A stretch of DNA of 64,000 bases. It comes from a bacterium. GTDB taxonomy: Bacteria; Electryoneota; RPQS01. Position 1 is the stretch's first letter; every line of letters starts with the position of its first letter. Under the pieces are notes generated by a model that saw only the letters and a program-made list of their open reading frames with translations, was not told where the DNA came from and did not search any database. The DNA lies in contig JADJEH010000011.1 of NCBI GenBank assembly GCA_016702305.1, positions 19,561 to 83,560 of the forward strand. The letters are read 5' to 3'. This document shows positions 12,601 to 26,906 of the stretch, piece by piece. The translations under genes and the position numbers were made by a program.

Positions 12601-13083
12601 CGACGGAAGCGGTCCACTGTTTAGCATAGGTGCAGAAAACACATTCAACGTTAAGGCTAATGGAGGAGGTAGGTTTTGGACGACAGCAGATCACGCTAGC
12701 AACATCGGGACGCGGCTCGCAGCAGGGGATCGTCATGGGTTGCTCTAAGCGATTCAACGAAGAAAACAAATCGAATACCTGTAGATTCAAAAGCAATTTT
12801 ACAGAAGGTCGCCGCGCTTCCGATTGACCAGTGGAACTACAAGCATCAAGCGGATGGCCCTTTGCATATTGGGCCAATGGCTCAGGATTATTGGAACGCA
12901 TTCCATCTCGGTGAAGACAGTTTAGGCATCGAAACCATTGACGCAGACGGCGTGCTGTTCGCGGCGGTGCAGGAATTGGCAAAACAGAACGCGGAGCTGA
13001 AGCAAACAAATGACAAGCAAACATCAGAGATTGCTGAACTCAAGCAGTTGGTAGAACAAATGACTCAACTTGGAAATAAGTAA
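9686..13083 (+). CDS. Tail-fibre-like surface protein, paralog A of ~1,130 aa. It has a signal peptide, a conserved N-terminal domain, a long Gly-rich repeat core and a C-terminal intramolecular-chaperone (peptidase S74) domain. At least three frame breaks are present
   Basis: 'MKTLVFVLLTF...YQGQLT...VAMSF...VWTEVHPAVVVTGGLFNV...NRWLGI...EMLPREQ...HSYRVGTVDGATGG' matches the paralog N-termini. There are dozens of 'STVGGGxxNxASGxxS' repeats. The C-terminus 'IPVDSKAILQKVAALPIDQWNYKHQADGPLHIGPMAQDYW...GVLFAAVQELAKQNAELKQ' is the S74 chaperone signature. Frame switches fall at ~10145 (GGG run), ~12700 and ~12770. Confidence 0.7.
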
Positions 13084-13103
13084 CAGGACGATTCGGAATT
13101 CCC

Positions 13104-14327
13104 ATGAAAAGACTCTTACTCGTATTACTCCTTTCCGCGAACGCGATGGCGATCCCGAGGTTGGTGAACTATCAAGGTCAGTTGACCTCGCCGACCGGTA
13201 CGCCGCTCGACACGACAGTTGCGATGACGTTTAACATCTGGCCAACTCCCACAGGTGGAGTTTCAGTATGGACAGAGACGCATCCGGCTGTGTCTGTGAC
13301 TAACGGACTATTCAATGTTCAGCTTGGTTCCATCACCACTCTAACAGATCTTTTCTCAGTCAATCGTTGGCTCGGAATTGCAATACAAGATGACCCCGAA
13401 ATGACTCCTCGTGAGCAACTGTTATCAGTTGTTCATGCATATCGTGTCGGAACGGTGGACGGCGCGAGTGGCGGAACGATAAGCGGGAATGTGAATATTT
13501 CTGGCAAAGCCAATATCGGTAGTGGAAACGTCAACAGTGGCAGTTTCGCTTTCGTTGCCGGGCAGAATGATACGGCAAGCGGCCCTTTTTCTACGGTTAG
13601 CGGCGGTTTTGGCAATGTGACGAGTGCCAATTCTGCAACTGTCGGCGGCGGTTTTGGCAATTCGGCGAGTGGCACTGATGCGACTGTTGGCGGCGGTAGT
13701 GGCAATACGGCGAGTGCCAATTCTGCAACGGCGAGTGGAGGGAGTGGCAACAGTGCCAGCGGCGTCGCGAGTTGCATTCCCGGAGGAGCGAACAATATTT
13801 GCTCCGGAGTAGGCTCGTTTACTTGTGGGAATAACGCCCATTCCATCGGGGACAGCAGCTTTGTTTTTAATGATGGCAGATACGGCGGGAACATCGGCGG
13901 CCAAGCGCGACGGTTTATTGTGATCGCGTCCGACGGCTCCTTTATCCATACGAATAGTACCGCCACGTTGGGTGCCCAGCTTCCCGCCAACGCCACAGCG
14001 TGGGTTGCCATCTGTGACTCGACTAAGAAGAATCGGTATGGGCAAGTCAACACAAGTGAAGTGTTGTCCAAACTTTCTCACATTCCCATTGAAACATGGA
14101 GCTACAAAGACGACCCCAACCATGTGAAGCATATCGGCCCGATGGCGCAGGATTTTTACTCGGCGTTTCATGTAGGCGAGAGCGACACCACGATTTCAAC
14201 GCTTGATCCGGATGGCGTTGCGCTCGCCGCAATTCAGGAATTGGCGAAGCAGGTTAAGCAATTGCAAAGTGAGAACACTGAGCTAAGAAAACTGGTCGAG
14301 CAAACGATTAAATTGGGAAACAAATAG
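13104..14327 (+). CDS. Tail-fibre-like surface protein, paralog B of 407 aa, intact. Same N- and C-terminal domains as paralog A with a shorter Gly-rich core
   Basis: Signal peptide 'MKRLLLVLLLSANAMA'. N-domain '...NYQGQLTSPTGTPLDTTVAMTF...'. C-terminus 'CDSTKKNRYGQVNTSEVLSKLSHIPIETWSYKDDPNHVKHIGPMAQDFYSAFHV...GVALAAIQELAKQVKQL', matching the S74/endosialidase-chaperone pattern SD.R.K.N / IG..AQ / coiled-coil tail. Confidence 0.8.
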   Translation: MKRLLLVLLLSANAMAIPRLVNYQGQLTSPTGTPLDTTVAMTFNIWPTPTGGVSVWTETHPAVSVTNGLFNVQLGSITTLTDLFSVNRWLGIAIQDDPEMTPREQLLSVVHAYRVGTVDGASGGTISGNVNISGKANIGSGNVNSGSFAFVAGQNDTASGPFSTVSGGFGNVTSANSATVGGGFGNSASGTDATVGGGSGNTASANSATASGGSGNSASGVASCIPGGANNICSGVGSFTCGNNAHSIGDSSFVFNDGRYGGNIGGQARRFIVIASDGSFIHTNSTATLGAQLPANATAWVAICDSTKKNRYGQVNTSEVLSKLSHIPIETWSYKDDPNHVKHIGPMAQDFYSAFHVGESDTTISTLDPDGVALAAIQELAKQVKQLQSENTELRKLVEQTIKLGNK

Positions 14328-14330
14328 AGA

Positions 14331-16221
14331 GTGATAATGAAGATGATGAAATTCGCCATAGTGCTCTTCCTGTTTGCTGTGCAAGCCTTTGCAATCCCGC
14401 AAGTGATCAACTACCAAGGGCAGTTGACCTCGCAGACCGGAACACCTCTCGATACGACAGTGGCAATGACGTTCAATCTCTATCCGGTTGTATCCGGTGG
14501 AGCAGCGGGTTGGAGTGAGACACATCCGGCAGTTGTTGTAACAGACGGGCTTTTCAATGTGCGCTTAGGCTCCGTCATACCGTTACCGGATGTTTTCTCG
14601 GTGAACAGTTGGCTGAGTGTGACGATTGGCGCAGATACGGAAATGTCGCCGCGTGAGCAGATTGTGTCGGTCGGTCATGCCTACCGTGCGGGGACGGTGG
14701 ACGGAGCGACGGGCGGAACGATCACCGGAAAGTTGAATGTTGGAAGCGGCAACACAAACAGCGGAAGTTTCGCCAATGTGCTGGGCGAGTCCAATAGCGT
14801 CAGCGGCAACTGGGGAGCGATATCAGGCGGAAGTAATAACATTTCGACGGAAGGATTCTACAATGTTATTGGCGGTGGAGCTGGAAACATCGTAGAGGCG
14901 GGTATCGTGACGATCAGTGGCGGATCCCTTAATCATGCCTTTCCCAATGCCTATAACGCTGTCATAGCGGGCGGAGAAGGCAATTACGTCAATGGGATCT
15001 TTGGCGTCATCGGGGGCGGGAATTACAACAACGTCATAAGCGACAGTGCGGCAACGATCGCTGGTGGATTTTTTAATAGAGTGAGCGCGAACTATTCGGC
15101 CATCGGTGGAGACGCATACAATATTGCCAGTGGTCAAGGATCCGTCGTGAGTGGGGGTGTGCAGGATTCCGCGTCTGGTTCGTATAGTACTGTTGGCGGT
15201 GGTCAAGGCAATAGCGCAAACTTCGTTGCAAGTACTATTGGCGGAGGACGGTATAACACCGCAAGTTCGAACGCTACGGTCAGCGGCGGTGTAGGAAATG
15301 CGGCGAGTGGAAACACGTCAACAGTCGGAGGCGGAGGAGGGAATACCGCAAATGGCAATTCCGCAACTGCCAGTGGCGGTGAAGGGAACATGGCGAGTGG
15401 CGATTATGCAATTGTCGGCGGTGGTCATGACAATGTTGCTTCAGGCATCAGCACAACAATTGACGGCGGCGAATTTAATACTGCGAGTGGTAATTATGCT
15501 ACGGTCGGCGGCGGTGCAGGAAATTCGGCGAGTGGATACAATTCAACAATCGGAGGCGGTAGTATAAATTCAGCAAGTAACTTTTTTTGCAACTGTCGGC
15601 GGCGGAATTGGCAATAGCGCGAGCGGTATCGGGAGTTGCATTCCCGGAGGACGAAACAATTCCTGCTCCGGTGAGGGCTCATTTACCTGTGGGAATTATG
15701 CGCATTCCGTTGGTGACAGTAGCTTTGTTTTTAATGATGGCAGATATGGCGGCAATATTGGCGGCCAAGCACGGAGGTTTATCGTGGTTGCGTCCAACGG
15801 TACTTTTATTCACACGAACAGTACCGCTACTCTGGGAGCACAGCTTCCCGCCAATTCGACTGCATGGGAAGCCATCTGCGACTCGACTAAGAAGGAACGA
15901 TATGGACAAGTCAACACCAGGGATGTTTTGTCCAAACTAACGATGATTCCGATTGAAACATGGAGCTACAAAGATGACCCCAATCACATCAAGCATATCG
16001 GCCCGATGGCGCAGGACTTTTATGCAGCGTTTCATGTAGGCGAAAGTGACACCACGATCTCCACGCTTGATCCCGATGGCGTGGCACTGGCGGCGATTCA
16101 GGAATTGGCCAAGCAGAATGAACAGAAAGACACAAAGATCACCGAACTCGAAGCGCGAGTGAAACAGCTTGAGGCAGCGATCTTACAATTTGGGAATCTG
16201 ACACAAACAGATAAACAGTAA
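14331..16221 (+). CDS. Tail-fibre-like surface protein, paralog C of ~630 aa if read through. It is interrupted by a +1 frameshift at a T7 homopolymer at 15581-15590
   Basis: The N-terminus is 'MIMKMMKFAIVLFLFAVQAFAIPQVINYQGQLTSQTGTPLDTTVAMTF'. ORF 15784..16221 carries the S74-like C-terminus '...KKERYGQVNTRDVLSKLTMIPIETWSYKDDPNHIKHIGPMAQDFYAAFHV...'. With T6 instead of T7 the frame reads 'NFFATVGGGIGNSASG', which matches the repeat consensus of paralog B. Confidence 0.7.
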
Positions 16222-16232
16222 GGAGTCCACCC

Positions 16233-16697
16233 ATGAACAAAGCACTCGTCCTACTCTTCTTGCCCGCACTCTTGTGGGCACAGTCTCAGAGCGAGAATTT
16301 CACCCTAACAAAGTCCGTCATTGACGCAGGCGGCGGCGCGTCGAGTTCTACGAATTTCAACCTCGTTTCTGCGTTCGGTCAACCGACGCCAGTCGGTGTG
16401 CAGTCAAGCGAAAGTTTCACACTGTACGCGGGCTTCTTGACGCCGTTGCTTTCCGTTTCACCGCTGTCACCAATTCAACGCCTGGTAATTAAGGAAGCGC
16501 AACCGGACGCGGTACTTAACTGGGAAGCCATCGCCGGTGCGGGAAGCTACTCTGTATATCGTAATACTGCGATCAACTTCACGCCAGGACCCGGAAACCT
16601 AGTCGGCACAACAACGAATACTACATTTACGGACACAAACGTTTTGGCGGGTCCCGCTGTTCAGCAGTATTACATCGTCATCGTGAATAACCCATGA
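16233..16697 (+). CDS. Small secreted hypothetical protein of 154 aa with a signal peptide
   Basis: 'MNKALVLLFLPALLWAQSQ' is a signal peptide. The protein is Thr/Ser/Gly-rich and immediately follows the tail-fibre-like genes. No known motif. Confidence 0.5.
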   Translation: MNKALVLLFLPALLWAQSQSENFTLTKSVIDAGGGASSSTNFNLVSAFGQPTPVGVQSSESFTLYAGFLTPLLSVSPLSPIQRLVIKEAQPDAVLNWEAIAGAGSYSVYRNTAINFTPGPGNLVGTTTNTTFTDTNVLAGPAVQQYYIVIVNNP

Positions 16698-16864
16698 CAC
16701 GATCAATCAGACCCCTTGCGGCGTCGCAACCATTGTGGTCCTGTCCTTGGCATTCACTTGGTTTCATTTGGAAGCGCGTGAAATCGCAAATCAGGTTGCA
16801 CTTGACTTCATTCGATTTCGTTGGCGCGTTAAATCAATGATTTAACAGCAGATACATGTTGGGA

Positions 16865-16908
16865 CTGTCACGCCGGAGGTCGCGGGTTCGAGTCCCGTCG
16901 GCCCCGCT
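16865..16908 (+). other. 3' fragment of tRNA-Asp(GTC), running from the anticodon loop through the T-arm to the acceptor 3' strand, with no 5' half. It is a putative att core and island boundary
   Basis: 'CTGTCACGCcGGaGGTCGCGGGTTCGAGTCCCGTCgGccCCG' is near-identical to the 3' part of bacterial tRNA-Asp, whose 3' half is CTGTCACGCAGGGGGTCGCGGGTTCGAGTCCCGTCCGTTCCG. No D-arm or complementary 5' acceptor strand is present upstream. Confidence 0.7.
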
Positions 16909-16917
16909 AAAAAACAA

Positions 16918-16955
16918 GGGTTTACCAGAAATGGTAAACCCTTTTCGTTTTACCC
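16918..16955 (+). terminator. Rho-independent terminator, the native tRNA terminator, directly after the tRNA fragment
   Basis: The 9-bp stem is GGGTTTACC/GGTAAACCC with loop AGAAAT, followed by TTTTCGTTTT. Confidence 0.7.
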
Positions 16956-17049: not shown

Positions 17050-17098
17050 ATTAGTCATATGACTAATTCAATTGACCAATACAATTGACTAATTAGTC
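17050..17098. promoter_or_regulatory. Two palindromic operator-like sites upstream of the TetR gene, probably TetR autoregulatory operators
   Basis: A perfect 18-bp palindrome ATTAGTCATATGACTAAT lies at 17050-17067. A perfect 12-bp palindrome GACTAATTAGTC lies at 17087-17098. Both share the GACTAAT/ATTAGTC half-site, and there are direct repeats of CAATTGAC. They sit in an AT-rich region 50-100 bp upstream of the TetR start. Confidence 0.5.
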
Positions 17099-17146: not shown

Positions 17147-17959
17147 ATGACTGCAATGAAGAAAAAGCCCACGGTGGCCAAAGGTGCCCCGAAGACAAAA
17201 AGTTCTTTCGTTCTCGTAAACCGGACGCCCGGTGCCAGAATTCCGCAGCTTGAGACGATTTTGCCACCGGACCCAGCCACAACAAAGGGACAACTTTTCA
17301 TTGCGGCAACCCGTCTATTCTCGGAATTCGGATTCAAGGGAACAAACACGCGGGCGATCGCCAGCGCGGCGGGGGTCCGCCAAGTCATGCTGAACTACTA
17401 TTTCGGCAGCAAAGAACAGCTATACGAACAAGTCTTGCGCTATGAGGGCACAACGATGCTCAGTGTCATTTTTGGCTCGGCAACCAATAACAAGTCACCC
17501 GAAGAGATGTTGATCGACTCGCCGATTCGCCTAATGACCGTATTGCACGACAATCCGCAGTGGGCAGCGCTCTTAAGACGCGAAATCGCCGATGGTGCCG
17601 TGCACTTGCGCCGGGCATTGATCGGGGTTGCCGAACACGGACCGCTGGGTGCCAATCTGCACTTTCACGACGCCTATAAGGCCGCAGTCAGTAGCGGCAA
17701 AGCAGTCGATTTGCCCATCGAGGCTGTCCGCGAGTGCCTCTTGGCGATCGGTTACAGCGCAATCTACCTTGCCCCGCTAATCTCAATGATCAATGAACGC
17801 GACTTTCATGACGAAACGGTTTGGGAAGAATGGAAGCTGACGCTCAGCACCATCCTCAAACGCGGATTGCTCATTGTCGATGAGTCTCACGTCAAATCTC
17901 CGAACGTTGCGGGTGACAATAAGGATGGGACTCACATCAACCCGAAAATTCAGTCATGA
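17147..17959 (+). CDS. TetR/AcrR-family transcriptional regulator
   Basis: The N-terminal HTH is 'TKGQLFIAATRLFSEFGFKGTNTRAIASAAGVRQVMLNYYFGSKEQLYEQVL', a TetR_N signature. Length is 270 aa. Confidence 0.85.
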   Translation: MTAMKKKPTVAKGAPKTKSSFVLVNRTPGARIPQLETILPPDPATTKGQLFIAATRLFSEFGFKGTNTRAIASAAGVRQVMLNYYFGSKEQLYEQVLRYEGTTMLSVIFGSATNNKSPEEMLIDSPIRLMTVLHDNPQWAALLRREIADGAVHLRRALIGVAEHGPLGANLHFHDAYKAAVSSGKAVDLPIEAVRECLLAIGYSAIYLAPLISMINERDFHDETVWEEWKLTLSTILKRGLLIVDESHVKSPNVAGDNKDGTHINPKIQS

Positions 17960-18124
17960 CCGGCGGGGCAAGTATCATTGTTGTCGTCTTACTATTGGCC
18001 GCCGTTGTGCTTCTTTTGCTTTGGGTGTCGGGATCCAAGCGACCTTGTCCCCATTGCCGCGCGATGATGCCCAAGTTAAATGTACTATGCCCGCACTGCC
18101 GACGACAAGTGCCGATCGCGCACT
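17957..18124 (+). CDS. Membrane miniprotein of 55 aa with one TM helix and a CPHC...CPHC zinc ribbon, copy 1
   Basis: Translation 'MTGGASIIVVVLLLAAVVLLLLWVSGSKRPCPHCRAMMPKLNVLCPHCRRQVPIAH'. Its start overlaps the TetR stop as ATGA. A paralog lies at 22079..22248. Confidence 0.5.
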
Positions 18125-18202
18125 GAAAAATAGAGTCTCGGAAACGAGACAGTCACCCGCGGGTTCACCGCGACACGAGCGAAAGCTCACCAGGAGACAC
18201 CC

Positions 18203-18640
18203 ATGAAAAAGAAACTTTGGACACTGGTCCTGCTCACATTGTTCGCCGGCAATGCGTTTGCCGTTGGGACCGTGATGCAGCTACAGCAGACGATCCCGCG
18301 CAACTACTACGCGCAGTATGCGCCGGCGCAGGCACCAACGACGCCAGAATCCGTGCCTTCGGCCGAAGAACAGGCCGTCGCGCAACGCAAGGATTTTGTG
18401 GACCGGCTCACAGAACTGCGCGACCGGGAATCAAGCCTTGACAAACAGTCCATTCAGTTGATCCAGGACAATTCCGCGTTGGCGAGCCAACTGGAACAGA
18501 ACAACCTTGAACGCAAGCGAGTCAAAGTTGACCAGAAGGACGTCAAGCGCAACATCAAGGAGCTGGAGCGCGAGAAGAACATTTTCGACAAGAAAGATAA
18601 GCTGCGCAAGAAGATAGACAAACTCATGTATAGCAACTGA
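18203..18640 (+). CDS. Secreted coiled-coil protein of 145 aa
   Basis: Signal peptide 'MKKKLWTLVLLTLFAGNAFA'. The C-terminus is charged and heptad-rich. There is no counterpart in the second module copy. Confidence 0.55.
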   Translation: MKKKLWTLVLLTLFAGNAFAVGTVMQLQQTIPRNYYAQYAPAQAPTTPESVPSAEEQAVAQRKDFVDRLTELRDRESSLDKQSIQLIQDNSALASQLEQNNLERKRVKVDQKDVKRNIKELEREKNIFDKKDKLRKKIDKLMYSN

Positions 18641-18642
18641 TC

Positions 18643-19020
18643 ATGACAGCCCCTAATGTCACCGTTGTCGTTCCGCTTACGGTCGGCAAGCGAACGGAAG
18701 CAGCTCACCAGAAGCCCCGGGAATATGGATTCCTATTGGTGCTCGCCGCGATGGCCCTCGTCATGTGGCTTTTCAGTCGATTCTTCAGTTGGGGCCGGAC
18801 GACCAAACCCGTGCTTAGCAAGAAAGCTGAGAAACTTTTGAACGAAATTGAAACTCTCGAAATCCTGCAGGAACAAGCGAGACTTGACCTCCGGAGAGTT
18901 CGACTCGAACAAAAGACACTACAGGCCGAAGAAGAAAATGAACGGCAAGCCAACGCTGAGCCGCCCGCGGCAACCGAAAGCCCACGGTCAAACAACGGCC
19001 ACGTCCCAAGGCCACAATGA
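18643..19020 (+). CDS. Membrane protein with a coiled-coil tail of 125 aa, copy 1
   Basis: TM helix 'YGFLLVLAAMALVMWLFSRFF', then 'KPVLSKKAEKLLNEIETLEILQEQARLDLRRVRLEQKTLQAEEE'. It is ~65% identical to 22356..22733. Confidence 0.55.
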   Translation: MTAPNVTVVVPLTVGKRTEAAHQKPREYGFLLVLAAMALVMWLFSRFFSWGRTTKPVLSKKAEKLLNEIETLEILQEQARLDLRRVRLEQKTLQAEEENERQANAEPPAATESPRSNNGHVPRPQ

Positions 19021-19133
19021 TGACTGATTGGAGCTTACGCAGGATCGTGTTCGGCTGGCTAATTCGACCGGCGCGCTCGTACTGGCAGCTTGGCTCGTCA
19101 TTACCGCCGCGTCCCGGTATTGGAATAAGTAGA
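19017..19133 (+). CDS. TM miniprotein of ~38 aa, copy 1. Relative to copy 2 it has a 1-nt frame difference
   Basis: 'MMTDWSLRRIVFGWL...', and after a -1 shift '...LVLAAWLVITAASRYWNK'. Compare copy 2 'MMTDWSLRSIVLGWLVPTGLLVLAAWIVVTAASRYWNK'. The start overlaps the upstream stop as ATGATGA. Confidence 0.3.
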
Positions 19134-19186
19134 TAATCGTGTCGTCAGTTGCTCGCGATCTGGCCACACAAGCAAACGAGGATAAA

Positions 19187-19372
19187 ATGGAAAAACTCAC
19201 GTTCAGTGGGACATGGCTTGAAGTCACAGGAAAACTCAAGCAGAAGTTCGGCCACCTGACCGACAACGATCTGATGTTCATGGAAGGCAAGGAAGAGGAA
19301 CTCTTGGGGCGGCTCCAAACGAAACTCGGACGAACTAAGGCGCAATTGCGCGAAATCATTAAGAAGATTTAG
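19187..19372 (+). CDS. CsbD-family general stress protein
   Basis: 'MEKLTFSGTWLEVTGKLKQKFGHLTDNDLMFMEGKEEELLGRLQTKLGRTKAQLREIIKKI' matches the CsbD pattern (KxKWGxLTDDDL...GKxExL.GK.QE.YG). An AGGAT Shine-Dalgarno sequence lies 7 nt upstream. Confidence 0.7.
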   Translation: MEKLTFSGTWLEVTGKLKQKFGHLTDNDLMFMEGKEEELLGRLQTKLGRTKAQLREIIKKI

Positions 19373-19440
19373 CGACTCCACGGGACCCGGATGGACGGTC
19401 CATGGTAAGCAGATCGGGCAACTAGAAGAAAGACTCACAG

Positions 19441-19902
19441 ATGAAAAAGCACTTTAAGGTCGTAGTGTTAGCGGTTGCGGTGGCTTCAATAGCAACGATT
19501 GTCGGCTGTTCGCAGACGTCCGAGCAGAAGCTCGCCGACGCCAAGGCCGAAGTTGTGGACCTCAAGAAGGATGTGAAAGTCGCCGTCGCAGAACAGACAG
19601 AAGCTGCCAAGCAGGTTGAGTGGCTCAGCTTCAAGAGCAACGCGGAAGTGAAGATCATGGCGAACGACAAAGCCATCGCGGATTACAAAGCTCGCATGTC
19701 AGGTGCGAATGGCAAACGTCGCGCCGAATACGACAAGAAGATCGACGCGCTGGAACTCAAGAACAAGGAGTTGAAGGCGAGGCTCGTGAACTATCCCGAA
19801 ACCGGGAAAAGCTCATGGGAACAATTCAAGAACGAGTTCAGCCACGACATGGATGAACTGGGTTCGGCACTTAAGGACTTCGCAGTCAACAACGAGAAGT
19901 AA
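19441..19902 (+). CDS. Lipoprotein, coiled-coil, 153 aa
   Basis: Lipobox 'IATIVGCSQ' after the signal peptide. The remainder is Lys/Glu/Ala-rich. Confidence 0.6.
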   Translation: MKKHFKVVVLAVAVASIATIVGCSQTSEQKLADAKAEVVDLKKDVKVAVAEQTEAAKQVEWLSFKSNAEVKIMANDKAIADYKARMSGANGKRRAEYDKKIDALELKNKELKARLVNYPETGKSSWEQFKNEFSHDMDELGSALKDFAVNNEK

Positions 19903-20003
19903 CGCATTGCCGTGCGAGTCGTGAGTCGTGTGTTACCAAGCATACACTCACGGCGGCGCACCGGTGGATTGTCGGAGACACAAAGGAGAAGTCGGAGATT
20001 TCG

Positions 20004-21566
20004 ATGAACGACGAGCAACGGATAACTGACGCTGCAAATCAAGCACAAACGTCTGCCGCTCTGAAACTCGCGGCGCTTGCAGAGTCGACATCGGATGCCA
20101 TTATCGGTCTTGCCGTGGACGGCACAATCGATAGTTGGAATATCGGCGCAGAAGCACTCTACGGATACACTACTGCTGAAGCCATTGGCCGAAACATATC
20201 AATGCTGGCGCCCAAAGGCGCCGAGGACGAATTTCCTGCCAAGATACTGCGGATCAAAGCCGGCGAGCGACTTCTGAATTTTGAAACGACACAGATCCGG
20301 AAATACGGGCAGACCCAAGTAGTCGCGTTAACGATGTCGCCCCTGCTGGATGAGTATGGAACCATTTCAGGAGTTGCGACAATCGCACGAGACATCACGT
20401 CCCAGAAACGCACGGATGACGCACTGCGCGCCCTCTCCAATATGGAAGCTACAACCCTGCTAGCCGGCGGAGTGGCCCACGATCTGAATAACCTGATGGC
20501 CGCGGTGTTAGGGCATGCGGAGCTGCTCGCGATGGAATTCCGCGATCGTCCCGCGGCGATGGGCAGCGTTGATGTTATCCTTGGTTCCGCGCAGCTCGCG
20601 GGACGGTTGGCGCAAGAGCTGCTCGCCTTCGCCCAAGGAGGCCGTTACGAATCAGCCGTTGTCAACATGAATAACATTGTCCAACAGGTTCTCGGGCTCC
20701 AGATAGCGCACGTTCCTCAAGGCGTTACTATTAAACAGGAACTGGCGGCCGATCTGAACAGCGTAGTGGCGGATCCAACGCAGATGGCGCATGCCTTGCA
20801 CAATCTAATCAAGAACGCTATCGAAGCGGTCGACGGACAGGGGCGCATCTTAATCAAGACGTGCAACGCTGTTCTGACTGAGCAAACGGTCGCGGAACAT
20901 GGCGGACTTAGGCCAGGACAACATGTCGTGGTCACAGTATCCGATAGCGGTCATGGCATGTCCGAAGATGTGATCGCGAACGCCTTTAAGCCGTTTTACT
21001 CGACTAAGGGTCTAGGGCGCGGCCTCGGATTAGCTGCAGTTTACGGCATTTCGAAGAATCACGGCGGTCATGTCACGGCATCCAGTCCACCGGGCAAAGG
21101 CGCCGTTGTCACAATCTACTTGCCCTCGACTACTCGTGAATCCATCGAGATCCCTGTAGTACCAAGTGGTGAGTTGCGCGGAAGTGAGACAATTCTTGTC
21201 GTAGATGATGAGGCGCAGTTGCTGATGCTTAACCGCCGCATACTGGAGGCCAACGGCTATCATGTGTTGACGGCGCGAGACGGAGCGGAAGCCCTGCGCG
21301 TGTCCGAAGAGTTCGCTGGCGACATTCACCTTGTCGTACTGGACATGGCAATGCCGGTTATGGACGGCGCGAAGGCGTTTGCGCTGCTCAAGCAAGCCAG
21401 ACCGGATTGCAAAGTCATTATCAGCAGCGGGTACGACTTGAACGACAAAGTACGGTCCCTGCTCGTGGCCGGCGCAGACGCGTTCTTGCAGAAACCTTTT
21501 CGTCTTACAGACTTGACATCGGAAGTAAGGCGGCTGCTCAATAGCCAACAAGCGGATGAATCGTAA
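20004..21566 (+). CDS. PAS-domain hybrid sensor histidine kinase with a C-terminal receiver domain
   Basis: PAS-like N-terminus. H-box 'AGGVAHDLNNLMAAVLGHAELL'. HATPase_c region 'VSDSGHGM...GLGRGLGL'. REC domain 'ILVVDDEAQLLMLNRRILEANGYHVLTARDG...VVLDMAMPVMDG'. Confidence 0.85.
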   Translation: MNDEQRITDAANQAQTSAALKLAALAESTSDAIIGLAVDGTIDSWNIGAEALYGYTTAEAIGRNISMLAPKGAEDEFPAKILRIKAGERLLNFETTQIRKYGQTQVVALTMSPLLDEYGTISGVATIARDITSQKRTDDALRALSNMEATTLLAGGVAHDLNNLMAAVLGHAELLAMEFRDRPAAMGSVDVILGSAQLAGRLAQELLAFAQGGRYESAVVNMNNIVQQVLGLQIAHVPQGVTIKQELAADLNSVVADPTQMAHALHNLIKNAIEAVDGQGRILIKTCNAVLTEQTVAEHGGLRPGQHVVVTVSDSGHGMSEDVIANAFKPFYSTKGLGRGLGLAAVYGISKNHGGHVTASSPPGKGAVVTIYLPSTTRESIEIPVVPSGELRGSETILVVDDEAQLLMLNRRILEANGYHVLTARDGAEALRVSEEFAGDIHLVVLDMAMPVMDGAKAFALLKQARPDCKVIISSGYDLNDKVRSLLVAGADAFLQKPFRLTDLTSEVRRLLNSQQADES

Positions 21567-21819
21567 CCTGTCTTTGAACTGCGGCGAGTAGAGAACTTGT
21601 CAATTTCACTACACTGAGAGAAAGATGCACTGAAATCACATCCGTAATACTTGGAGTCCTTTTGAGTTGGGCGATCTTGCCTACATACGCCAAAAGGTCG
21701 CAAGTTGTGACAGCTGCACACCACGAGAACTCTGATCGGTTGGCTAGTGACCCATCAAACCTGGAACCATTGACCGCGACTCCGGTCGGCAATCCAAAGG
21801 GTGGCACCGTCGCCGGCAG

Positions 21820-22042
21820 GGCAGAGATCGACTCGCCTATCGAGCCCGTCCGCGAGTGCCTTTTGGCGGATGGCTAAAGCGCGATCTACCTTGCACCACT
21901 GATTTCGATGATCAACGAGCGTGACTGTCATGACGAAACTGTATGGGAGGAATGGAAGCTGACGCTCTCCACCATTCTCAAACGTGGACTGCTCATAAAC
22001 GAACCGTCGGCAGACAGCGTCAAACACAAAGCGCGCGATTAA
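21820..22042 (+). pseudogene. TetR C-terminal fragment, a duplicate of the 3' end of 17147..17959, with an in-frame TAA at 21874-21876
   Basis: 'IEPVRECLLADG*SAIYLAPLISMINERDCHDETVWEEWKLTLSTILKRGLLI' against TetR 'IEAVRECLLAIGYSAIYLAPLISMINERDFHDETVWEEWKLTLSTILKRGLLI'. There is no N-terminal HTH. Confidence 0.7.
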
Positions 22043-22078
22043 CGAGCCTCGTCGCACAACACACTGGAGTAGAAGCAA

Positions 22079-22248
22079 TGACCAGCGTAACGAATGTCCT
22101 TCTTATCGGCTTCATACTAGCCGGGATCGTGCTTCTTTTGCTGTGGGTGTCAGGATCCAAAAGACCGTGTCCTCATTGCCGCGCAATGATGCCCAAAGAG
22201 AAAATTCTCTGCCCGCATTGCCGACGAAAAGTGCCAATCGCGTACTGA
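22079..22248 (+). CDS. Membrane miniprotein with a CPHC...CPHC zinc ribbon, copy 2
   Basis: 'MTSVTNVLLIGFILAGIVLLLLWVSGSKRPCPHCRAMMPKEKILCPHCRRKVPIAY' is a paralog of 17957..18124. Confidence 0.5.
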
Positions 22249-22355
22249 ACACCAGGCGCTTGCAATTGCATCAACCACACCCGGCACTCGTCCTCAGCCT
22301 TTCGGACATGCAACAAATCAATAATGATGAACAATCTAATCCACAGAAACCTCAA

Positions 22356-22733
22356 ATGATAGCCACCAATGTCACCACAGTCATTCCCGGTACAATCAGC
22401 AAGCAAATTGATACCGCACAACGGAAGCCGCGGGACTACGGATTTCTGCTTATGCTGGCCGCGATGGCCCTTATAGTCTGGCTGTTGGACCGTTTCTTCA
22501 ACTGGGGACGGACGACCAAGCCCGTGCTCAGCAAGAAGGCCGAACGACTTCAGAATGAAATCAACACTCTCGAGATCCTGCAGGAGCAGGCGCGACTTGA
22601 TCTCCGCAGGGTGCGAATCGAACAAAAGACACTTCAGGCTGAAGAAGCGATCGAGAGTGGACCTGTTGTCATACCTGGTGTGGCGGCGAACAACGCCACG
22701 CTAACCGACGGACACATTGCGAGGCCACAATGA
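22356..22733 (+). CDS. Membrane protein with a coiled-coil tail, copy 2
   Basis: '...PRDYGFLLMLAAMALIVWLLDRFFNWGRTTKPVLSKKAERLQNEINTLEILQEQARLDLRRVRIEQKTLQAEE' is a paralog of 18643..19020. The start could be an upstream ATG at 22308. Confidence 0.5.
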   Translation: MIATNVTTVIPGTISKQIDTAQRKPRDYGFLLMLAAMALIVWLLDRFFNWGRTTKPVLSKKAERLQNEINTLEILQEQARLDLRRVRIEQKTLQAEEAIESGPVVIPGVAANNATLTDGHIARPQ

Positions 22734-22846
22734 TGACCGATTGGAGCTTACGCAGTATCGTTCTCGGCTGGCTCGTGCCAACCGGCCTGCTTGTCCTCGC
22801 AGCCTGGATTGTCGTGACCGCGGCATCCCGGTATTGGAACAAGTAG
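22730..22846 (+). CDS. TM miniprotein of 38 aa, copy 2
   Basis: 'MMTDWSLRSIVLGWLVPTGLLVLAAWIVVTAASRYWNK'. It has the same ATGATGA overlap with the upstream stop as copy 1. Confidence 0.4.
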   Translation: MMTDWSLRSIVLGWLVPTGLLVLAAWIVVTAASRYWNK

Positions 22847-23072
22847 CAAACCTTCGAACCACCGCTGGCGATCAGAAATTGAAAGAACGCAATGTCACCG
22901 CGAAAACGACTAGACACTGTATCGTCCGTCGAAAGTCGTTGGGATTTGCCAGTACAAGACCGAAAGTTGGGCCGCCGACAACTTTGACCGCAATAGCATA
23001 CATCCGATGGCAACCGATTCCCAATCCTATCCGTAAGCAGAATGCAAGCGCCTCACCACTCTTGGCCAACTA

Positions 23073-25358
23073 ATGACAGTAAATAACTCACCGCTAAAAC
23101 GCATCGCCTTCATCGGCAACTACGCGCCGCGTCAATGTGGAATTGCGACGTTTACGACCGACCTCTGCGAATCCGTGGCGAACACCTTTACAGATACAAC
23201 GTACATCGCCATTCCCGTCAATGATACTGAGGCCGGCTATGCGTACCCGCCTCGAGTGCGGTTCGAACTTACCGAAAAAGACATAGACTCCTATCGCCGT
23301 GCCGCGGACTTCTTGAATATTAACAATGTTGACTTAGTTTGCTTGCAGCACGAATACGGAATCTTCGGCGGACAAGTCGGCAGCCATATCCTGGCTTTGT
23401 TGCGCGAACTTCGCATGCCAATCGTCACGACGTTTCACACAATTCTGCAGCATCCCGACCCGGACCAGAAAAGAGTCTTGCAAGAAATTGCGACGCTGTC
23501 TGACAGGATTGTGGTCATGAGCGAACGCGGTCGGACCGACCTGCAGACGGTGTTTGGGGTTGCGCCGGAAGTGATTGACATGATCCCGCACGGCATACCG
23601 GACTTGCCATTTGTTGATCCGAGCTTCCATAAGGACGTGTTTGGAGTAGAAGGAAAAATCGTCCTGCTGAGCTTTGGTTTGCTTTCTGCGAACAAAGGAC
23701 TCGAGAACGTCATCGCGGCGCTACCGGCAATTCTTGATCGCTTTCCAAATGTGGTGTACCTGATTCTCGGTGCAACGCACCCGCATGTCAAGCGGCGCGA
23801 GGGGGAATCGTATCGTCTATCCCTGCAACTCATGGCAGAAGAGAAGGGCGTTGAAGCACACGTCATGTTCTACAATCGCTTTGTCAGCTTGGATGAACTG
23901 ATAGAATTCATTGGCGCCGCTGATATCTACATCACGCCCTACCTGAACGCCGCGCAGAGTACATCCGGTGTACTGGCCTATACGCTTGGCGCAGGCAAAG
24001 CCGTGGTTTCCACGCCGTATTGGTACGCTGAGGAGATGCTCGCCGACGAGCGCGGCGTGCTGATTCCGTTTCGCGACCCCGCCGCGCTGGCCGAACAGGT
24101 TATTGAACTCCTGGAGAATGAACCACGACGCCACTCCATGCGGAAGCGCGCGTACATGTTTGGGCGAGAGATGATCTGGCCCGTAGTGGCGCGCAGCTAT
24201 ATGGCGACGTTTAAACGCGCACACTCGGAACGCCGGCATTCCATGTCTCCGGCGTTTATCGCCCGATCAGCGGACAAGCGGCCGAGCGAATTACCGCCGC
24301 TTAAACTCGACCATTTGCGGCACATGACAGACGAAACCGGCATGCTGCAGCACGCTGTCTTCACGGTGCCCAACTACCACGAAGGTTACACCACCGATGA
24401 CAACGCGCGGGCGCTGATGGTTAGTACGTTGCTCGACGAAGTCGGCCGCGGTGAGGCTTTTGACCTTGCCTCACGCTATCTCTCGTTCGTGTGGTACGCG
24501 TTTAATCCTACGACCGGCCGCTTTCGGAATTTCATGAACTACCAGCGTACATGGCTGGAAGAGCATAGCGGGTCGGATGACAGTCACGGCCGCACGCTGC
24601 TTGCATTGGGGACGGTGTTAGGCCGTTTCAACACGCCGGCTCTGCATAGCATGGCAGGGTGGATGTTTGAGCAAGCACTGCCGGCGATCCACGAAACTTC
24701 AAGTCCGCGCGCCTGGGCGTTTGCAATCATCGGCATACACGAATATCTCCGCCGCTTTTCGGGCGACCGCAACGCAAGTCAGTTTCAAGATGAACTGGCG
24801 GCGCGGCTGCTGGAACTCTATCGCGCCAACTCAGGGGATGACTGGAAATGGTTTGAAGATGAGTTAACCTATTGCAACGCCGTTCTTCCGCACGCAATGC
24901 TGCTCTGCGGGCACACGATGGCAAACGACGAGCTCACTCGAATCGGAATTGAGTCATTGACGTGGTTGGCGGACTTGCAACGAGCCGAAGCCGGGACCGG
25001 TCACTTCGTGCCGATCGGGTCCAATGGTTTCTATCGGCGCGGCGGACATCGCGCCCGCTTTGATCAACAGCCTGTTGAAGCACAAGCCATGGTATCGGCA
25101 TGCCTCGAGGCGCACCGTACAACGGGAGACAAGCGCTGGCGCAACGAAGCGCGCCGTGCATTCGAATGGTTTCTGGGACGCAACGACTTAAACTTGCAGA
25201 TTTACGACCCGCTGACCGGCGGTTGTCGTGACGGTTTGCACGCAAATCGCCTGAACGAAAATCAAGGAGCCGAGTCATCGTTGGCGTTTCTGCAAGCGCT
25301 GCTCGAGCTCCGCCTTGAAGAACACAGCTTGGAATCTAAAGAGGCGCGCAAATCATGA
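23073..25358 (+). CDS. GT4-family glycosyltransferase, by its N-terminal half, fused to a C-terminal ~370-aa domain of uncertain type, possibly (alpha/alpha)6-barrel-like
   Basis: The N-terminus 'RIAFIGNYAPRQCGIATFTTDL' and 'VSTPYWYAEEMLADERGVLIPF' are GT4-like. The C-terminal half 'FTVPNYHEGYTTDDNARALMVS...' has no firm assignment. Length is 761 aa and it is translationally coupled to the GH130 gene. Confidence 0.7.
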   Translation: MTVNNSPLKRIAFIGNYAPRQCGIATFTTDLCESVANTFTDTTYIAIPVNDTEAGYAYPPRVRFELTEKDIDSYRRAADFLNINNVDLVCLQHEYGIFGGQVGSHILALLRELRMPIVTTFHTILQHPDPDQKRVLQEIATLSDRIVVMSERGRTDLQTVFGVAPEVIDMIPHGIPDLPFVDPSFHKDVFGVEGKIVLLSFGLLSANKGLENVIAALPAILDRFPNVVYLILGATHPHVKRREGESYRLSLQLMAEEKGVEAHVMFYNRFVSLDELIEFIGAADIYITPYLNAAQSTSGVLAYTLGAGKAVVSTPYWYAEEMLADERGVLIPFRDPAALAEQVIELLENEPRRHSMRKRAYMFGREMIWPVVARSYMATFKRAHSERRHSMSPAFIARSADKRPSELPPLKLDHLRHMTDETGMLQHAVFTVPNYHEGYTTDDNARALMVSTLLDEVGRGEAFDLASRYLSFVWYAFNPTTGRFRNFMNYQRTWLEEHSGSDDSHGRTLLALGTVLGRFNTPALHSMAGWMFEQALPAIHETSSPRAWAFAIIGIHEYLRRFSGDRNASQFQDELAARLLELYRANSGDDWKWFEDELTYCNAVLPHAMLLCGHTMANDELTRIGIESLTWLADLQRAEAGTGHFVPIGSNGFYRRGGHRARFDQQPVEAQAMVSACLEAHRTTGDKRWRNEARRAFEWFLGRNDLNLQIYDPLTGGCRDGLHANRLNENQGAESSLAFLQALLELRLEEHSLESKEARKS

Positions 25359-26317
25359 CGGAACGCTACTCGGATCTTTTTCAGCGAAGTAAGAGCAACC
25401 CGATCCTAACCGCGGACAATTGGCCATATCCTGTCAACAGCGTGTTCAATCCCGCCGCTGTCCTGTTGAAGGACGGAACGACGCTGCTCCTTTGTCGAGT
25501 GGAGGATCGGCGCGGTCATTCGCATTTCAGCGCGGCGCGCTCTGCGAACGGAGTGGACAACTGGGTCATTGACGCGACGCCGACGCTGGCAGCGGACCCG
25601 GAGCGATTTCCCGAGGAGCTATGGGGAATCGAAGATCCGCGCATTACGTATGTACCTGAGCTGAACAAATACGCCATTGTCTACACAGCCTATAGTCGCG
25701 ACGGGCCCGGCGTCGCGTTGGCGTTCACGGACGACTTTGTGACCTTTGAACGGTTGGGCGTAATCATGCCGCCCGAGGACAAAGACGCTGCACTCCTCCC
25801 ACGCCGCATAGACGGTCAATGGGCAGTCATCCACCGTCCGGTAAGCGCGCCGCGCGCCCACATGTGGATTTCATACTCGCCAGACCTGCAGAACTGGGGC
25901 GGACACAAGCTGATGATGGAAGCCCGGCGCGGCGCGTGGTGGGATGCTAACAAAATTGGCTTGTCGCCTCCACCGATTGAAACGCCACATGGCTGGCTCG
26001 TCATCTACCACGGTGTGCGACAGTCAGCGGCCGGTTGCATGTACCGCCTCGGGCTTGCGCTCTTTGACATCAACAAGCCGGAAGTGTGTCTGAGTCGCGG
26101 TGACGAGTGGATCTTTGGGCCGCAGGAACCATACGAACAGCACGGGGACGTGGGCAATGTGGTATTCCCGTGTGGCTACACCATCGCAGCGGACGGCGAT
26201 AGTCTCAATCTCTACTACGGCGCCGCCGACACCAGTATTGCACTTGCCACCGGCAGCGTGAAGACGATGCTGAAGTGGCTGGAACGACAGTCTCAAAACC
26301 AAACTAACATCACATAG
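25355..26317 (+). CDS. GH130-family glycoside phosphorylase/hydrolase, with a DUF377-like beta-propeller
   Basis: 'NPILTADNWPYPVNSVFNPAAVLLKDGTTLLLCRVEDRRG...GIEDPRITYV...YAIVYTAY' is the GH130 pattern. Confidence 0.75.
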   Translation: MTERYSDLFQRSKSNPILTADNWPYPVNSVFNPAAVLLKDGTTLLLCRVEDRRGHSHFSAARSANGVDNWVIDATPTLAADPERFPEELWGIEDPRITYVPELNKYAIVYTAYSRDGPGVALAFTDDFVTFERLGVIMPPEDKDAALLPRRIDGQWAVIHRPVSAPRAHMWISYSPDLQNWGGHKLMMEARRGAWWDANKIGLSPPPIETPHGWLVIYHGVRQSAAGCMYRLGLALFDINKPEVCLSRGDEWIFGPQEPYEQHGDVGNVVFPCGYTIAADGDSLNLYYGAADTSIALATGSVKTMLKWLERQSQNQTNIT

Positions 26318-26345
26318 TCCAATTGAAAGAAAAAGGGTAAAGACA

Positions 26346-26906
26346 ATGAGTAAGAACTTAGGCAAGAGTGTGGCTATTCTTGGGGTAAGCATCATGCTGC
26401 TTGCAATCGCTGCAACCGCTTCCGCCGAGAGCAACATCGGCTTCAAAGCAATTGGTCCACGTCTGGGCTTCGTTGATCCGGGCAACGACTTAGACGGTGC
26501 CGTAGAATTCGGCGCCGCAATGGAATTCGGCGAATTTGTTCGCCAACTGCATTGGAACGGCTCCTTGAGCTTCTGGTCCACTGGGCGCGAGTATCGTTAC
26601 TTCAACGACCGGTACGACTGGACATTGCGCGACATAATCGTGCGCACAGGCGTGGACTATCACTTCATTGAAGGTGATTGGGAGCCCTATGCGGGCGGTG
26701 GTCTTGGTCTGCACTTCTACTCGTGGGACTACAGCAACGCGCCCAACTATAGCAACTCTGATGACAACAAACTTGGACTCTACGTAGACGGCGGTGTTGA
26801 GCATCAAATCGCGGAGCGCTGGACCGGACAACTGCAAGTGCAGCTTGATTTCGCGGACCCGGATCAAACGGCGCTCATGTTTAATCTGCTCTACGTCTTG
26901 AAATAG
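26346..26906 (+). CDS. Outer-membrane beta-barrel protein, OmpW/OmpA-like, 186 aa
   Basis: Signal peptide 'MSKNLGKSVAILGVSIMLLAIAATASA'. Alternating aromatic/hydrophilic strands. C-terminus '...ALMFNLLYVLK'. Confidence 0.55.
   Translation: MSKNLGKSVAILGVSIMLLAIAATASAESNIGFKAIGPRLGFVDPGNDLDGAVEFGAAMEFGEFVRQLHWNGSLSFWSTGREYRYFNDRYDWTLRDIIVRTGVDYHFIEGDWEPYAGGGLGLHFYSWDYSNAPNYSNSDDNKLGLYVDGGVEHQIAERWTGQLQVQLDFADPDQTALMFNLLYVLK

Follow-up and report, generated by a model that had tools for sequence, protein, structure and literature searches.

This analysis concerns a duplicated module of small membrane-protein genes downstream of a TetR-family repressor gene, located in a 64,000-nucleotide (nt) stretch of DNA from a bacterium of the GTDB lineage Electryoneota, RPQS01 (GenBank assembly GCA_016702305.1, contig JADJEH010000011.1, positions 19,561 to 83,560 of the forward strand). 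The whole stretch is called the window; coordinates refer to it unless a contig is named, and all genes and repeat blocks described lie on its plus strand. A first reading from the sequence alone had proposed a diverged segmental duplication, and the nucleotide alignment of the two segments bears this out by recovering two colinear blocks that keep the same order and orientation in both copies. Block A (blastn E 5e-48, 74.7% identity) pairs 17696-18127 of copy 1, which holds the 3' end of tetR and a zinc-ribbon gene, with 21820-22249 of copy 2; block B (E 4e-54, 74.5% identity) pairs 18643-19132, which holds the gene of a transmembrane (TM) coiled-coil protein and a pseudogene, with 22356-22846. 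The identity of 80-85% given by the sequence-only reading was thus too high. Self-comparison revealed no third copy in the window.

Copy 1 begins with the gene of TetR1 (17147-17959), a TetR-family repressor of 270 amino acids (aa) that matches the Pfam model TetR_N (PF00440) with 50.5 bits against a cut-off of 24 and carries a 45-aa N-terminal extension. Its nearest solved structures are RutR, YttP and HlyIIR, the match covering mostly the N-terminal half (query residues ~45-160). Upstream of it lies the main operator candidate, a perfect palindrome of 18 base pairs (bp), ATTAGTCATATGACTAAT, at 17050-17067, the core of which (TTAGTCAnnTGACTAA) has its single exact match in the window here; a shorter palindrome at 17087-17098, GACTAATTAGTC, is a possible auxiliary operator and varies more among relatives than the main one. 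The TetR1 stop codon overlaps by ATGA with the start of ZnR1 (17956-18126), which has an N-terminal TM helix and a C-terminal CPHC-x9-CPHC motif, a candidate zinc ribbon; order, motif and overlap are as first described, the length being 56 rather than 55 aa. The next two genes, of a secreted 145-aa and a 125-aa TM coiled-coil protein, were likewise correctly called. CC145 (18203-18640), present in copy 1 only, is an exported coiled-coil protein with a signal peptide ending in AFA, and TMCC1 (18643-19020) is a bitopic protein whose TM segment (residues ~30-48) leads, judging by an AlphaFold2 (AF2) model, into a long helix up to residue 104. The last member is the mini1 pseudogene (19017-19134), whose ancestral product was the 38-aa TM peptide MMTDWSLRRIVFGWLIPTGALVLAAWLVITAASRYWNK. 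Between ZnR1 and CC145, the intergenic region contains two small GC-rich hairpins at 18135-18172 (GTCTCGGAAACGAGAC and CGCGGGTTCACCGCG), a possible site of processing or attenuation that is not matched by anything in copy 2.

Three genes that are not part of the repeat separate the copies, in agreement with the initial description of a csbD gene, a lipoprotein gene and a PAS hybrid kinase gene between them. The first encodes a CsbD-like general stress protein of 61 aa (19187-19372; Pfam CsbD, PF05532, 51.4 bits, cut-off 40), which is not duplicated, the second a 153-aa lipoprotein of the sll1863 stress-response family (19441-19902; NCBIfam NF052504, 44.9 bits, cut-off 35) and the third a cytoplasmic hybrid histidine kinase with the Pfam domain order PAS-HisKA-HATPase-REC (20004-21566). 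A unique spacer of 253 nt (21567-21819), similar only to the same-strain contig L004, joins the kinase gene to copy 2.

Copy 2 repeats the gene order of copy 1 in reduced form and, as first noted, lacks the gene of the secreted coiled-coil protein. It starts with a truncated TetR2 tail, the last ~73 codons of the gene (21820-22042), interrupted by an in-frame TAA at 21875-21877. This is followed by ZnR2 (22078-22248), an intact 56-aa TM zinc-ribbon paralogue, by TMCC2 (22356-22733), a 125-aa paralogue for which an upstream in-frame ATG at 22308 is possible, and by mini2 (22730-22846), a 38-aa TM peptide that overlaps the TMCC2 stop codon by ATGA. A 196-aa form of TMCC2 starting at a GTG would overlap ZnR2 and is probably not real; a look-up of this form returned no record. 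The exact mini2 protein has been called as a gene in four other assemblies. Where copy 1 has CC145, copy 2 has a spacer of 107 nt (22249-22355). A remnant of CC145 in this spacer was considered and rejected as alignment scores are no better than those of shuffled sequence, and placements made by MAFFT are not evidence for one.

That the two copies are an assembly artefact of a single locus was rejected because independent contigs show the same arrangement. The Logan contig L004, an independent assembly (related contigs and loci are numbered in this way throughout), matches 18538-21868 of the window at 98.6% identity without a gap, running from TMCC1 across the junction of kinase and copy 2 into the copy-2 TetR tail, and duplication-bearing contigs were also found in six other sequencing runs. 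Several further Logan contigs break exactly at 19013-19041 or 22726-22754, where copies 1 and 2 of that strain share an identical stretch of ~30 nt at the junction of TMCC and mini. Such a stretch would explain the breaks if the assembler's k-mers were about that length, and the breaks indirectly confirm that both copies are present in those samples.

The mini1 reading frame starts with MMTDWSLR at 19017 and overlaps the end of TMCC1 by ATGATGA, as the sequence-only reading had it; the 38-aa TM peptide ascribed to it is no longer encoded. Alignment with copy 2 shows a deletion of one nucleotide (ATTC[C]GACC), a C lost at 19065/66, that shifts the frame after codon 16 and leaves an open reading frame (ORF) of 39 aa without a hydrophobic segment. 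With the base restored, mini1 differs from mini2 at 5, 1 and 15 sites of codon positions 1, 2 and 3, and 32 of the 38 residues are identical. A sequencing error was rejected: the deletion is common to L004, L020, L022 and L023, which come from four independent runs, together with a TGG to TAG change in the old frame. Because the deletion recurs in this way, mini1 must be regarded as a pseudogene that was fixed recently, which leaves mini2 as the one intact 38-aa gene of the genome.

The remaining shared ORFs show the signature of protein-coding genes. Between the copies, differences at codon positions 1, 2 and 3 number 14, 14 and 31 in the TetR tail, 14, 5 and 19 in ZnR and 31, 22 and 59 in TMCC, and the ratios of non-synonymous to synonymous divergence (dN/dS) are 0.18, 0.25 and 0.19, respectively, at a dS of 0.7-1.2. 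Given this ratio, the excess of third-position differences and motifs kept in other genomes, we regard the shared miniprotein ORFs as real genes that evolve as coding sequence, as initially proposed. Neither of the two circumstances that would have spoken against the proposal was found: other genomes also have the ORFs in conserved form, and both copies are present in an independently made assembly.

Copy 2 could be a non-functional relic, the ordinary decaying duplicate of a set of hypothetical genes. Its tetR is truncated and contains a stop, it has no operator and no CC145, the TMCC2 branch is about five times as long as that of TMCC1 (11 against 2 residue changes), and strain variants of TMCC2 comprise 5 non-synonymous and 7 synonymous codons, although four of the five non-synonymous ones fall in the variable C-terminal tail. 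However, purifying selection acts among strains on ZnR2 (7 synonymous and 1 non-synonymous variant codons) and mini2 (1 and 0), the genome has no other intact gene of the mini2 kind, and strains with a collapsed locus, described below, retain the copy-2 genes under an intact TetR. We therefore consider a relic very improbable; by the pattern of strain variation, copy 2 is still constrained and, we conclude, functional. The statement that the module is kept in two copies needs qualification, since copy 1 has lost its 38-aa gene, copy 2 has lost the 5' part of tetR and is without the 145-aa gene, and sister strains have a single operon. As a result, the genome keeps one intact gene of each kind, split over two half-operons.

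To place the duplication in time, we built a neighbour-joining tree from the concatenated TetR tail, ZnR, TMCC and mini sequences with L001, L003, L009, L010 and L011 as outgroups. The two copies are sisters with 98.8% bootstrap support, copy 2 having the longer branch, so the duplication is specific to this lineage. Residue changes were assigned to the branches by outgroup comparison. In addition to the changes in TMCC, there are 5 changes on the copy-2 and 4 on the copy-1 branch of ZnR, and 5 (including the stop) against 1 in the 58 codons compared of the TetR tail. Five changes in 58 codons are far below neutral decay at a proportion of synonymous differences (pS) of 0.59, which indicates that the tail belonged to a functional tetR during most of its past.

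Sister strains provide the missing part of this gene. L019 encodes an intact TetR that is of copy-2 type from about position 17392 of the window on, ~300 nt further 5' than the tail in the window; this part is 77-85% identical to TetR1 and 98.6% identical to the copy-2 tail, and it has the consensus residues L, A, I, Y and F where the tail has S, P, D, a stop and C. Copy 2 was thus once a complete operon with its own TetR2, and what was first seen as a dead TetR tail, correct as to the in-frame stop, is the remnant of a full repressor gene. L002 and L016, the latter from a contig of 3.37 megabases (Mb), have a single operon, TetR-ZnR2-TMCC2-mini2-glycosyltransferase, and agree with the window at 98.6-99% identity in the sequence that follows copy 2. 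Their tetR equals TetR1 up to ~17793 and the copy-2 tail from ~21917 on, with a short mosaic zone in between, and the 4.1 kilobases (kb) absent from them comprise ZnR1, CC145, TMCC1, the mini1 pseudogene, CsbD, the lipoprotein and the kinase. L019 has the same single-operon layout with a breakpoint near 17392. Single-operon strains with two different breakpoints, next to the arrangement in the window, mean that at least three haplotypes coexist in one species.

We read the locus as an old tandem duplication of a full TetR-controlled operon that is now decaying and resolving, a history that, taken jointly with the mechanism proposed below, we hold with moderate confidence. The complete operon would have been duplicated once in tandem, and both copies would have stayed under purifying selection while diverging to ~75% identity. 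In the lineage of the window, a non-homologous deletion would then have removed the 5' part of tetR2, and copy 1 would recently have lost its 38-aa gene by frameshift. In sister strains, two independent homologous deletions between tetR1 and tetR2 would have produced the chimeric tetR genes that drive the copy-2 genes.

The direction of this last reaction can be questioned, as the chimeric pattern of L002 and L016 is equally expected from its reverse, an insertion. The copies would then be two diverged haplotypes of one locus from separate lineages, joined recently by inter-strain recombination within tetR, for example by a Campbell-type or homology-facilitated illegitimate insertion, a route that counts against the tandem duplication. 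Type 1 would carry CC145, CsbD, the lipoprotein and the kinase, type 2 would be reduced, and the single-copy strains would represent the older state. Single-copy haplotypes are indeed found in three assemblies (including the 3.37-Mb contig), their breakpoints being of two kinds; it is also clear that the TetR tail of copy 2 lost its function only recently, and the region just upstream is hypervariable between strains. Yet the two copies are each other's closest relatives in the tree, although the divergence between them is about that seen between different genera in the rest of the locus. A tetR whose 5' end is purely of type 2, or a locus with divergent flanks, was found in no genome; across all haplotypes the flanks are 98.6-100% identical, and the gene order of all outgroups here is that of type 1. 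Moreover, the decay of the copy-2 tail 5' of the crossover (4 of 29 codons, the stop included) is too advanced for a very recent insertion. On balance, we judge the joining of two haplotypes unlikely and retain the tandem duplication.

One single-operon strain shows a further local change. In L002, the part of ZnR2 that encodes the N-terminal TM segment (~6915-6968) is replaced by an unrelated G-rich stretch (…CCGACCCGGGGGGGGCGGGACCC…), whereas L016, L017 and L019 have the intact N-terminal sequence; the change reflects either a disruption specific to the strain or a local error made in assembling or polishing this metagenome-assembled genome (MAG).

Beyond the species, the locus is conserved in four diverged relatives (L001, L003/L008, L010 and L011), where the gene order is TetR, ZnR (not in all), CC145, TMCC, mini, CsbD, the 153-aa lipoprotein and the PAS hybrid kinase, followed by a 111-aa protein, a C39-like peptidase, a GT4 glycosyltransferase and a GH130 protein. 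The genes of the 111-aa Thr/Asn-rich membrane protein and the C39-like peptidase (compare L003 9949-10862) are found nowhere in the window; at 21567-22077, the unique spacer and copy 2 take the place that these genes have in the relatives, between kinase and glycosyltransferase. In the distant L011, the product of the ORF that overlaps the TMCC stop codon by ATGA is a TM segment that continues in frame into CsbD (121 aa in total, L011 7333-7698), and a second, separate CsbD gene follows at 7867-8103; the same TetR and operator are kept and ZnR is absent. A further contig of 2.4 kb, L012, comes from a more distant lineage and keeps CC145, CsbD and the lipoprotein together with a remnant that resembles TMCC but has only its TM part, with no TetR in view; the gene between CC145 and CsbD (1140-1290) encodes a short TMCC-like TM peptide, RYAFIIVLAVLALVVWIIVRF, without a coiled coil.

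The neighbours connect the module to stress. In Synechocystis, Sll1863 is among the top salt-induced proteins and a general stress protein (PMC8670252). The initial proposal of an envelope-stress or signalling module fits this context in its first half, given CsbD, the sll1863 family and the fusion of mini with CsbD; the signalling half finds no direct support. In the window and in every relative, the genes downstream of the module (23073-26906 in the window) encode a 761-aa GT4 glycosyltransferase with a long C-terminal extension, a GH130 protein resembling beta-1,2-mannobiose phosphorylase and an outer-membrane beta-barrel protein. This set may make or recycle a mannoside, which could bear on an osmotic-stress reading.

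The small proteins have well-conserved features. In ZnR, the four cysteines of CP[HSF]C-x9-CP[HR]C are invariant in six sequences and the adjoining SGSKRPCP motif is nearly so; the best curated zinc-ribbon match, DZR_2, reaches 19.7 bits against a cut-off of 27, and all 22 weak Pfam matches stay below their cut-offs. The AF2 model of ZnR has a helix at residues 2-28; having been built from two sequences, it gives the C-terminal half a predicted local distance difference test (pLDDT) score of 59-65, with only isolated bridge residues. Lysine and arginine residues flanking the helix number 0 on the N-terminal and 3-4 on the C-terminal side, and for both ZnR and mini, in which the motif GWL.P...L.AAWL is kept in relatives, an N-out/C-in orientation is favoured. 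This orientation would place the zinc ribbon in the reducing cytoplasm and the C-terminus of mini on the side of CsbD, in agreement with the fusion in L011. TMCC has a near-invariant stretch in relatives, YGFLLVLAALAL..W...RFF.WGR.TKPVLSKKA.KL..EIETLEILQEQAKLDLRRVR, and its AF2 model is one continuous helix at residues 28-104, of low confidence. In CC145, the C-terminal 85 residues are highly conserved among homologues.

Homologues are few. Among 5.8 billion proteins, TMCC has 13 and CC145 has 10, and ZnR2 has no match at E<=1, probably because the ZnR ORF is absent from the gene calls of every fetched locus; tblastn did find ZnR in the DNA of related loci. An exhaustive hidden Markov model (HMM) search of 1.84 billion cluster representatives returned three clusters for TMCC, all of its own family; one more locus each came from a scan that took a single genome for every species and from JGI metagenomes. 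None of the four small proteins scores above threshold in Pfam or NCBIfam, so that the proposed check against Pfam and gene neighbourhoods left them unmatched in a locus whose order is kept in four relatives. Profile searches of the PDB with TMCC and CC145 gave chance-level matches only (best E 0.1 or worse), PADLOC models matched none of TetR, ZnR, CC145, TMCC and mini, and PHROGs matched neither TMCC nor mini; ZnR matches one PHROG family without annotation at E 1e-4 to 2e-3 (best for ZnR2), and CC145 reaches E ~0.08. A search of 2.9 million viral contigs turned up no relative of either TMCC or CC145. Judging by their isolate names, the genomes that carry the module appear to be MAGs from activated sludge. 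As far as these searches reach, all four small proteins are confined to one uncultivated bacterial clade and stand outside every described family.

Small TM proteins, a protein with TM segment and coiled coil, and a nearby lipoprotein resemble phage lysis cassettes of holin-like and spanin-like proteins, from which the module could derive, or it could be a TetR-silenced membrane toxin of phage origin. Genes with tail-fibre features (Peptidase_S74 domain, PHROG tail fibre) are found 1-7 kb upstream, and a tRNA-like fragment is present at ~16870-16905. Against such an origin stand the lack of PHROG matches for TMCC and mini and their weakness for ZnR and CC145, the lack of a PADLOC match and of relatives in the viral contigs, and the absence of an endolysin from the locus; the locus is chromosomal and syntenic across diverged genomes, beside CsbD, kinase and GT4/GH130 genes. 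A phage-derived module is, in our view, hardly credible.

The region upstream of TetR1 has features of its own. From 9950 to 16700, it contains mutually similar tail-fibre-like genes (with a Peptidase_S74 chaperone domain, an ice-binding-like beta roll and PHROG tail-fibre matches) that are not colinear with the otherwise 99%-identical L002 and L016, which marks a hypervariable cassette just upstream of the TetR locus. It is followed by a non-coding stretch of ~210 nt (16710-16950, plus strand; L002 5665-5905, L010 2700-2960) that is conserved even to the distant L010, its last ~85 nt being identical there although the genomes are ~70% identical elsewhere. The stretch ends in a T-arm and 3' acceptor strand resembling those of tRNA or tmRNA (GCGGG TTCGAGT CCCGT CGGCCCC G), and a 12-bp terminator hairpin (16916-16943) lies directly 3' of this end. 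A tRNA or tmRNA at ~16870 was rejected, as ARAGORN found nothing, the Rfam tmRNA model scored 13.9-14.8 bits against a gathering threshold of 47 and there is no 5' acceptor strand. The stretch may be a tRNA-like small RNA or the remnant of an integration site.

Control of the module can be proposed from the operator. In six loci, the core TTAGTCAnnTGACTAA is found 84-110 nt 5' of the tetR ATG (exact in L001, L002, L003 and L011, with one mismatch in L010), and TetR1 is predicted to bind it and to repress its own operon. Wiring to a TetR with strong palindromic operators, as suggested by the sequence-only reading, thus describes copy 1, upstream of whose TetR1 the palindromes lie; no operator-like palindrome was found upstream of copy 2 in the window, and copy 2, being without an operator, would be transcribed by read-through from the kinase gene or from a promoter of its own.

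We propose, with the moderate confidence stated above for mechanism and history together, that the module encodes a TetR-repressed, stress-linked small-protein complex of the inner membrane. A TetR dimer on TTAGTCAnnTGACTAA would repress its own operon until a ligand releases it, and after derepression the overlap of start and stop codons would couple the amounts in which the small proteins are made. They would assemble in the inner membrane, ZnR with its zinc ribbon and the 38-aa peptide with its C-terminus in the cytoplasm, and CC145 would be in the periplasm. The complex would work together with the adjacent CsbD and sll1863-like lipoprotein and most likely hold or organise CsbD at the membrane in a stress or osmotic response.

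Several points weigh against this proposal or the history joined to it. The sister grouping of the two copies could be inflated by past gene conversion. Expression of copy 2 in this genome is unproven, as neither an operator nor a promoter was recognisable upstream of it in the window. The topology of TMCC is ambiguous, with four lysine or arginine residues on each flank of its TM segment, so the coil could meet either the zinc ribbon or the periplasmic CC145. The likeness of the TMCC and CC145 coils (hhalign probability 57%) is only suggestive; if real, it would speculatively argue for a periplasmic pairing of the two, which the faster evolution of TMCC2, left without a CC145 partner, would also fit. 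The complex would have no fixed composition, given that L011 is without ZnR and that neither copy 2 nor the single-copy strains have CC145. The link to CsbD consists of gene adjacency and one fusion in one contig, and inactivation of sll1862 and sll1863 in Synechocystis did not cause a salt-sensitive phenotype (PMC8670252).

A more specific version of the complex is conceivable, in which the orphan miniproteins form an inner-membrane scaffold that docks the enigmatic CsbD, and perhaps TetR via the cytoplasmic zinc ribbon. The in-frame fusion of mini and CsbD in one lineage would be a 'Rosetta stone' for their interaction; as it stands, we regard such a scaffold as a rather unlikely, tentative option.

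The small proteins might, on the other hand, regulate rather than execute, with ZnR and TMCC as the signal partner of TetR, acting as an anti-repressor or as a membrane tether that, in the manner of anti-sigma factors, binds TetR upon an envelope signal. Some TetR-family proteins take protein ligands, as do AmtR with GlnK and SlmA with FtsZ. ZnR, where present, always directly follows tetR, is coupled to it by ATGA in the window, has a zinc ribbon of predicted cytoplasmic location and preserves its cysteines and SGSKRPCP motif almost without change. However, L011 retains TetR and the operator without ZnR, the overlap of tetR and ZnR is replaced by gaps of 25-70 nt in other genomes, and there is no sign of co-variation between TetR and ZnR. 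A role of these proteins as TetR partners appears distinctly improbable, and we favour the stress-linked membrane complex under TetR control.

Among known systems, the nearest architectural analogy to this complex is offered by the DUF883 proteins YqjD, ElaB and YgaM with their small syntenic membrane partners YqjE and YqjK (10.1101/2024.08.16.608256). Both systems consist of small, largely helical proteins with a single TM anchor, are encoded beside very small membrane proteins, are linked to stationary phase or general stress and show repeated duplication and loss (10.1101/2024.08.16.608256). There is no sequence relationship, TMCC having no DUF883 match at E<=1 in Pfam, and the TMCC anchor is near the N-terminus (residues 30-48 of 125) whereas that of DUF883 proteins is C-terminal. 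Ribosome binding is not indicated for the module, which in turn is predicted to be under TetR control and includes a zinc-ribbon protein and an exported coiled-coil protein. PspB/PspC-like transducers likewise cross the membrane once, are small, have a coiled coil next to the membrane, are encoded side by side and have a link to membrane stress, but the module has no Pfam match or sequence similarity to them and no PspA or PspF partner.

With autoregulated TetR operons of the TetR/TetA type, the module shares the TetR_N helix-turn-helix, a conserved upstream palindrome of 16-18 bp and the repressor gene in first position. It differs in its cargo, three or four tiny envelope proteins instead of an efflux pump or catabolic enzyme, and in the 45-aa extension of TetR1. 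The two CPxC knuckles of ZnR, nine residues apart, are those of short double-knuckle zinc ribbons (DZR PF12773, DZR_2 PF18912, UPF0547), while its scores lie below their gathering thresholds (best 19.7 against 27 bits) and it adds an N-terminal TM helix. The genes of the CsbD/YjbJ (PF05532) and Sll1863 proteins directly follow copy 1, and they keep their synteny with the module in all relatives whose sequence extends far enough; neither family includes the duplicated small proteins.

The reach of these results is set by a narrow uncultivated clade and by a mechanism that is only inferred. Within it, ORFs of 38-56 aa, which gene callers and databases largely miss, could be validated from sequence through comparison of paralogues and strains. 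The locus also provides a natural example of how a tandem operon duplication ends, with complementary gene loss followed by recombination between diverged repressor genes. If the scaffold reading were true, CsbD-family proteins would gain their first defined physical partner and site of action. Even in its more general form, provided that the functional inference is true, the fusion of mini with CsbD gives a lead on CsbD-type general stress proteins.

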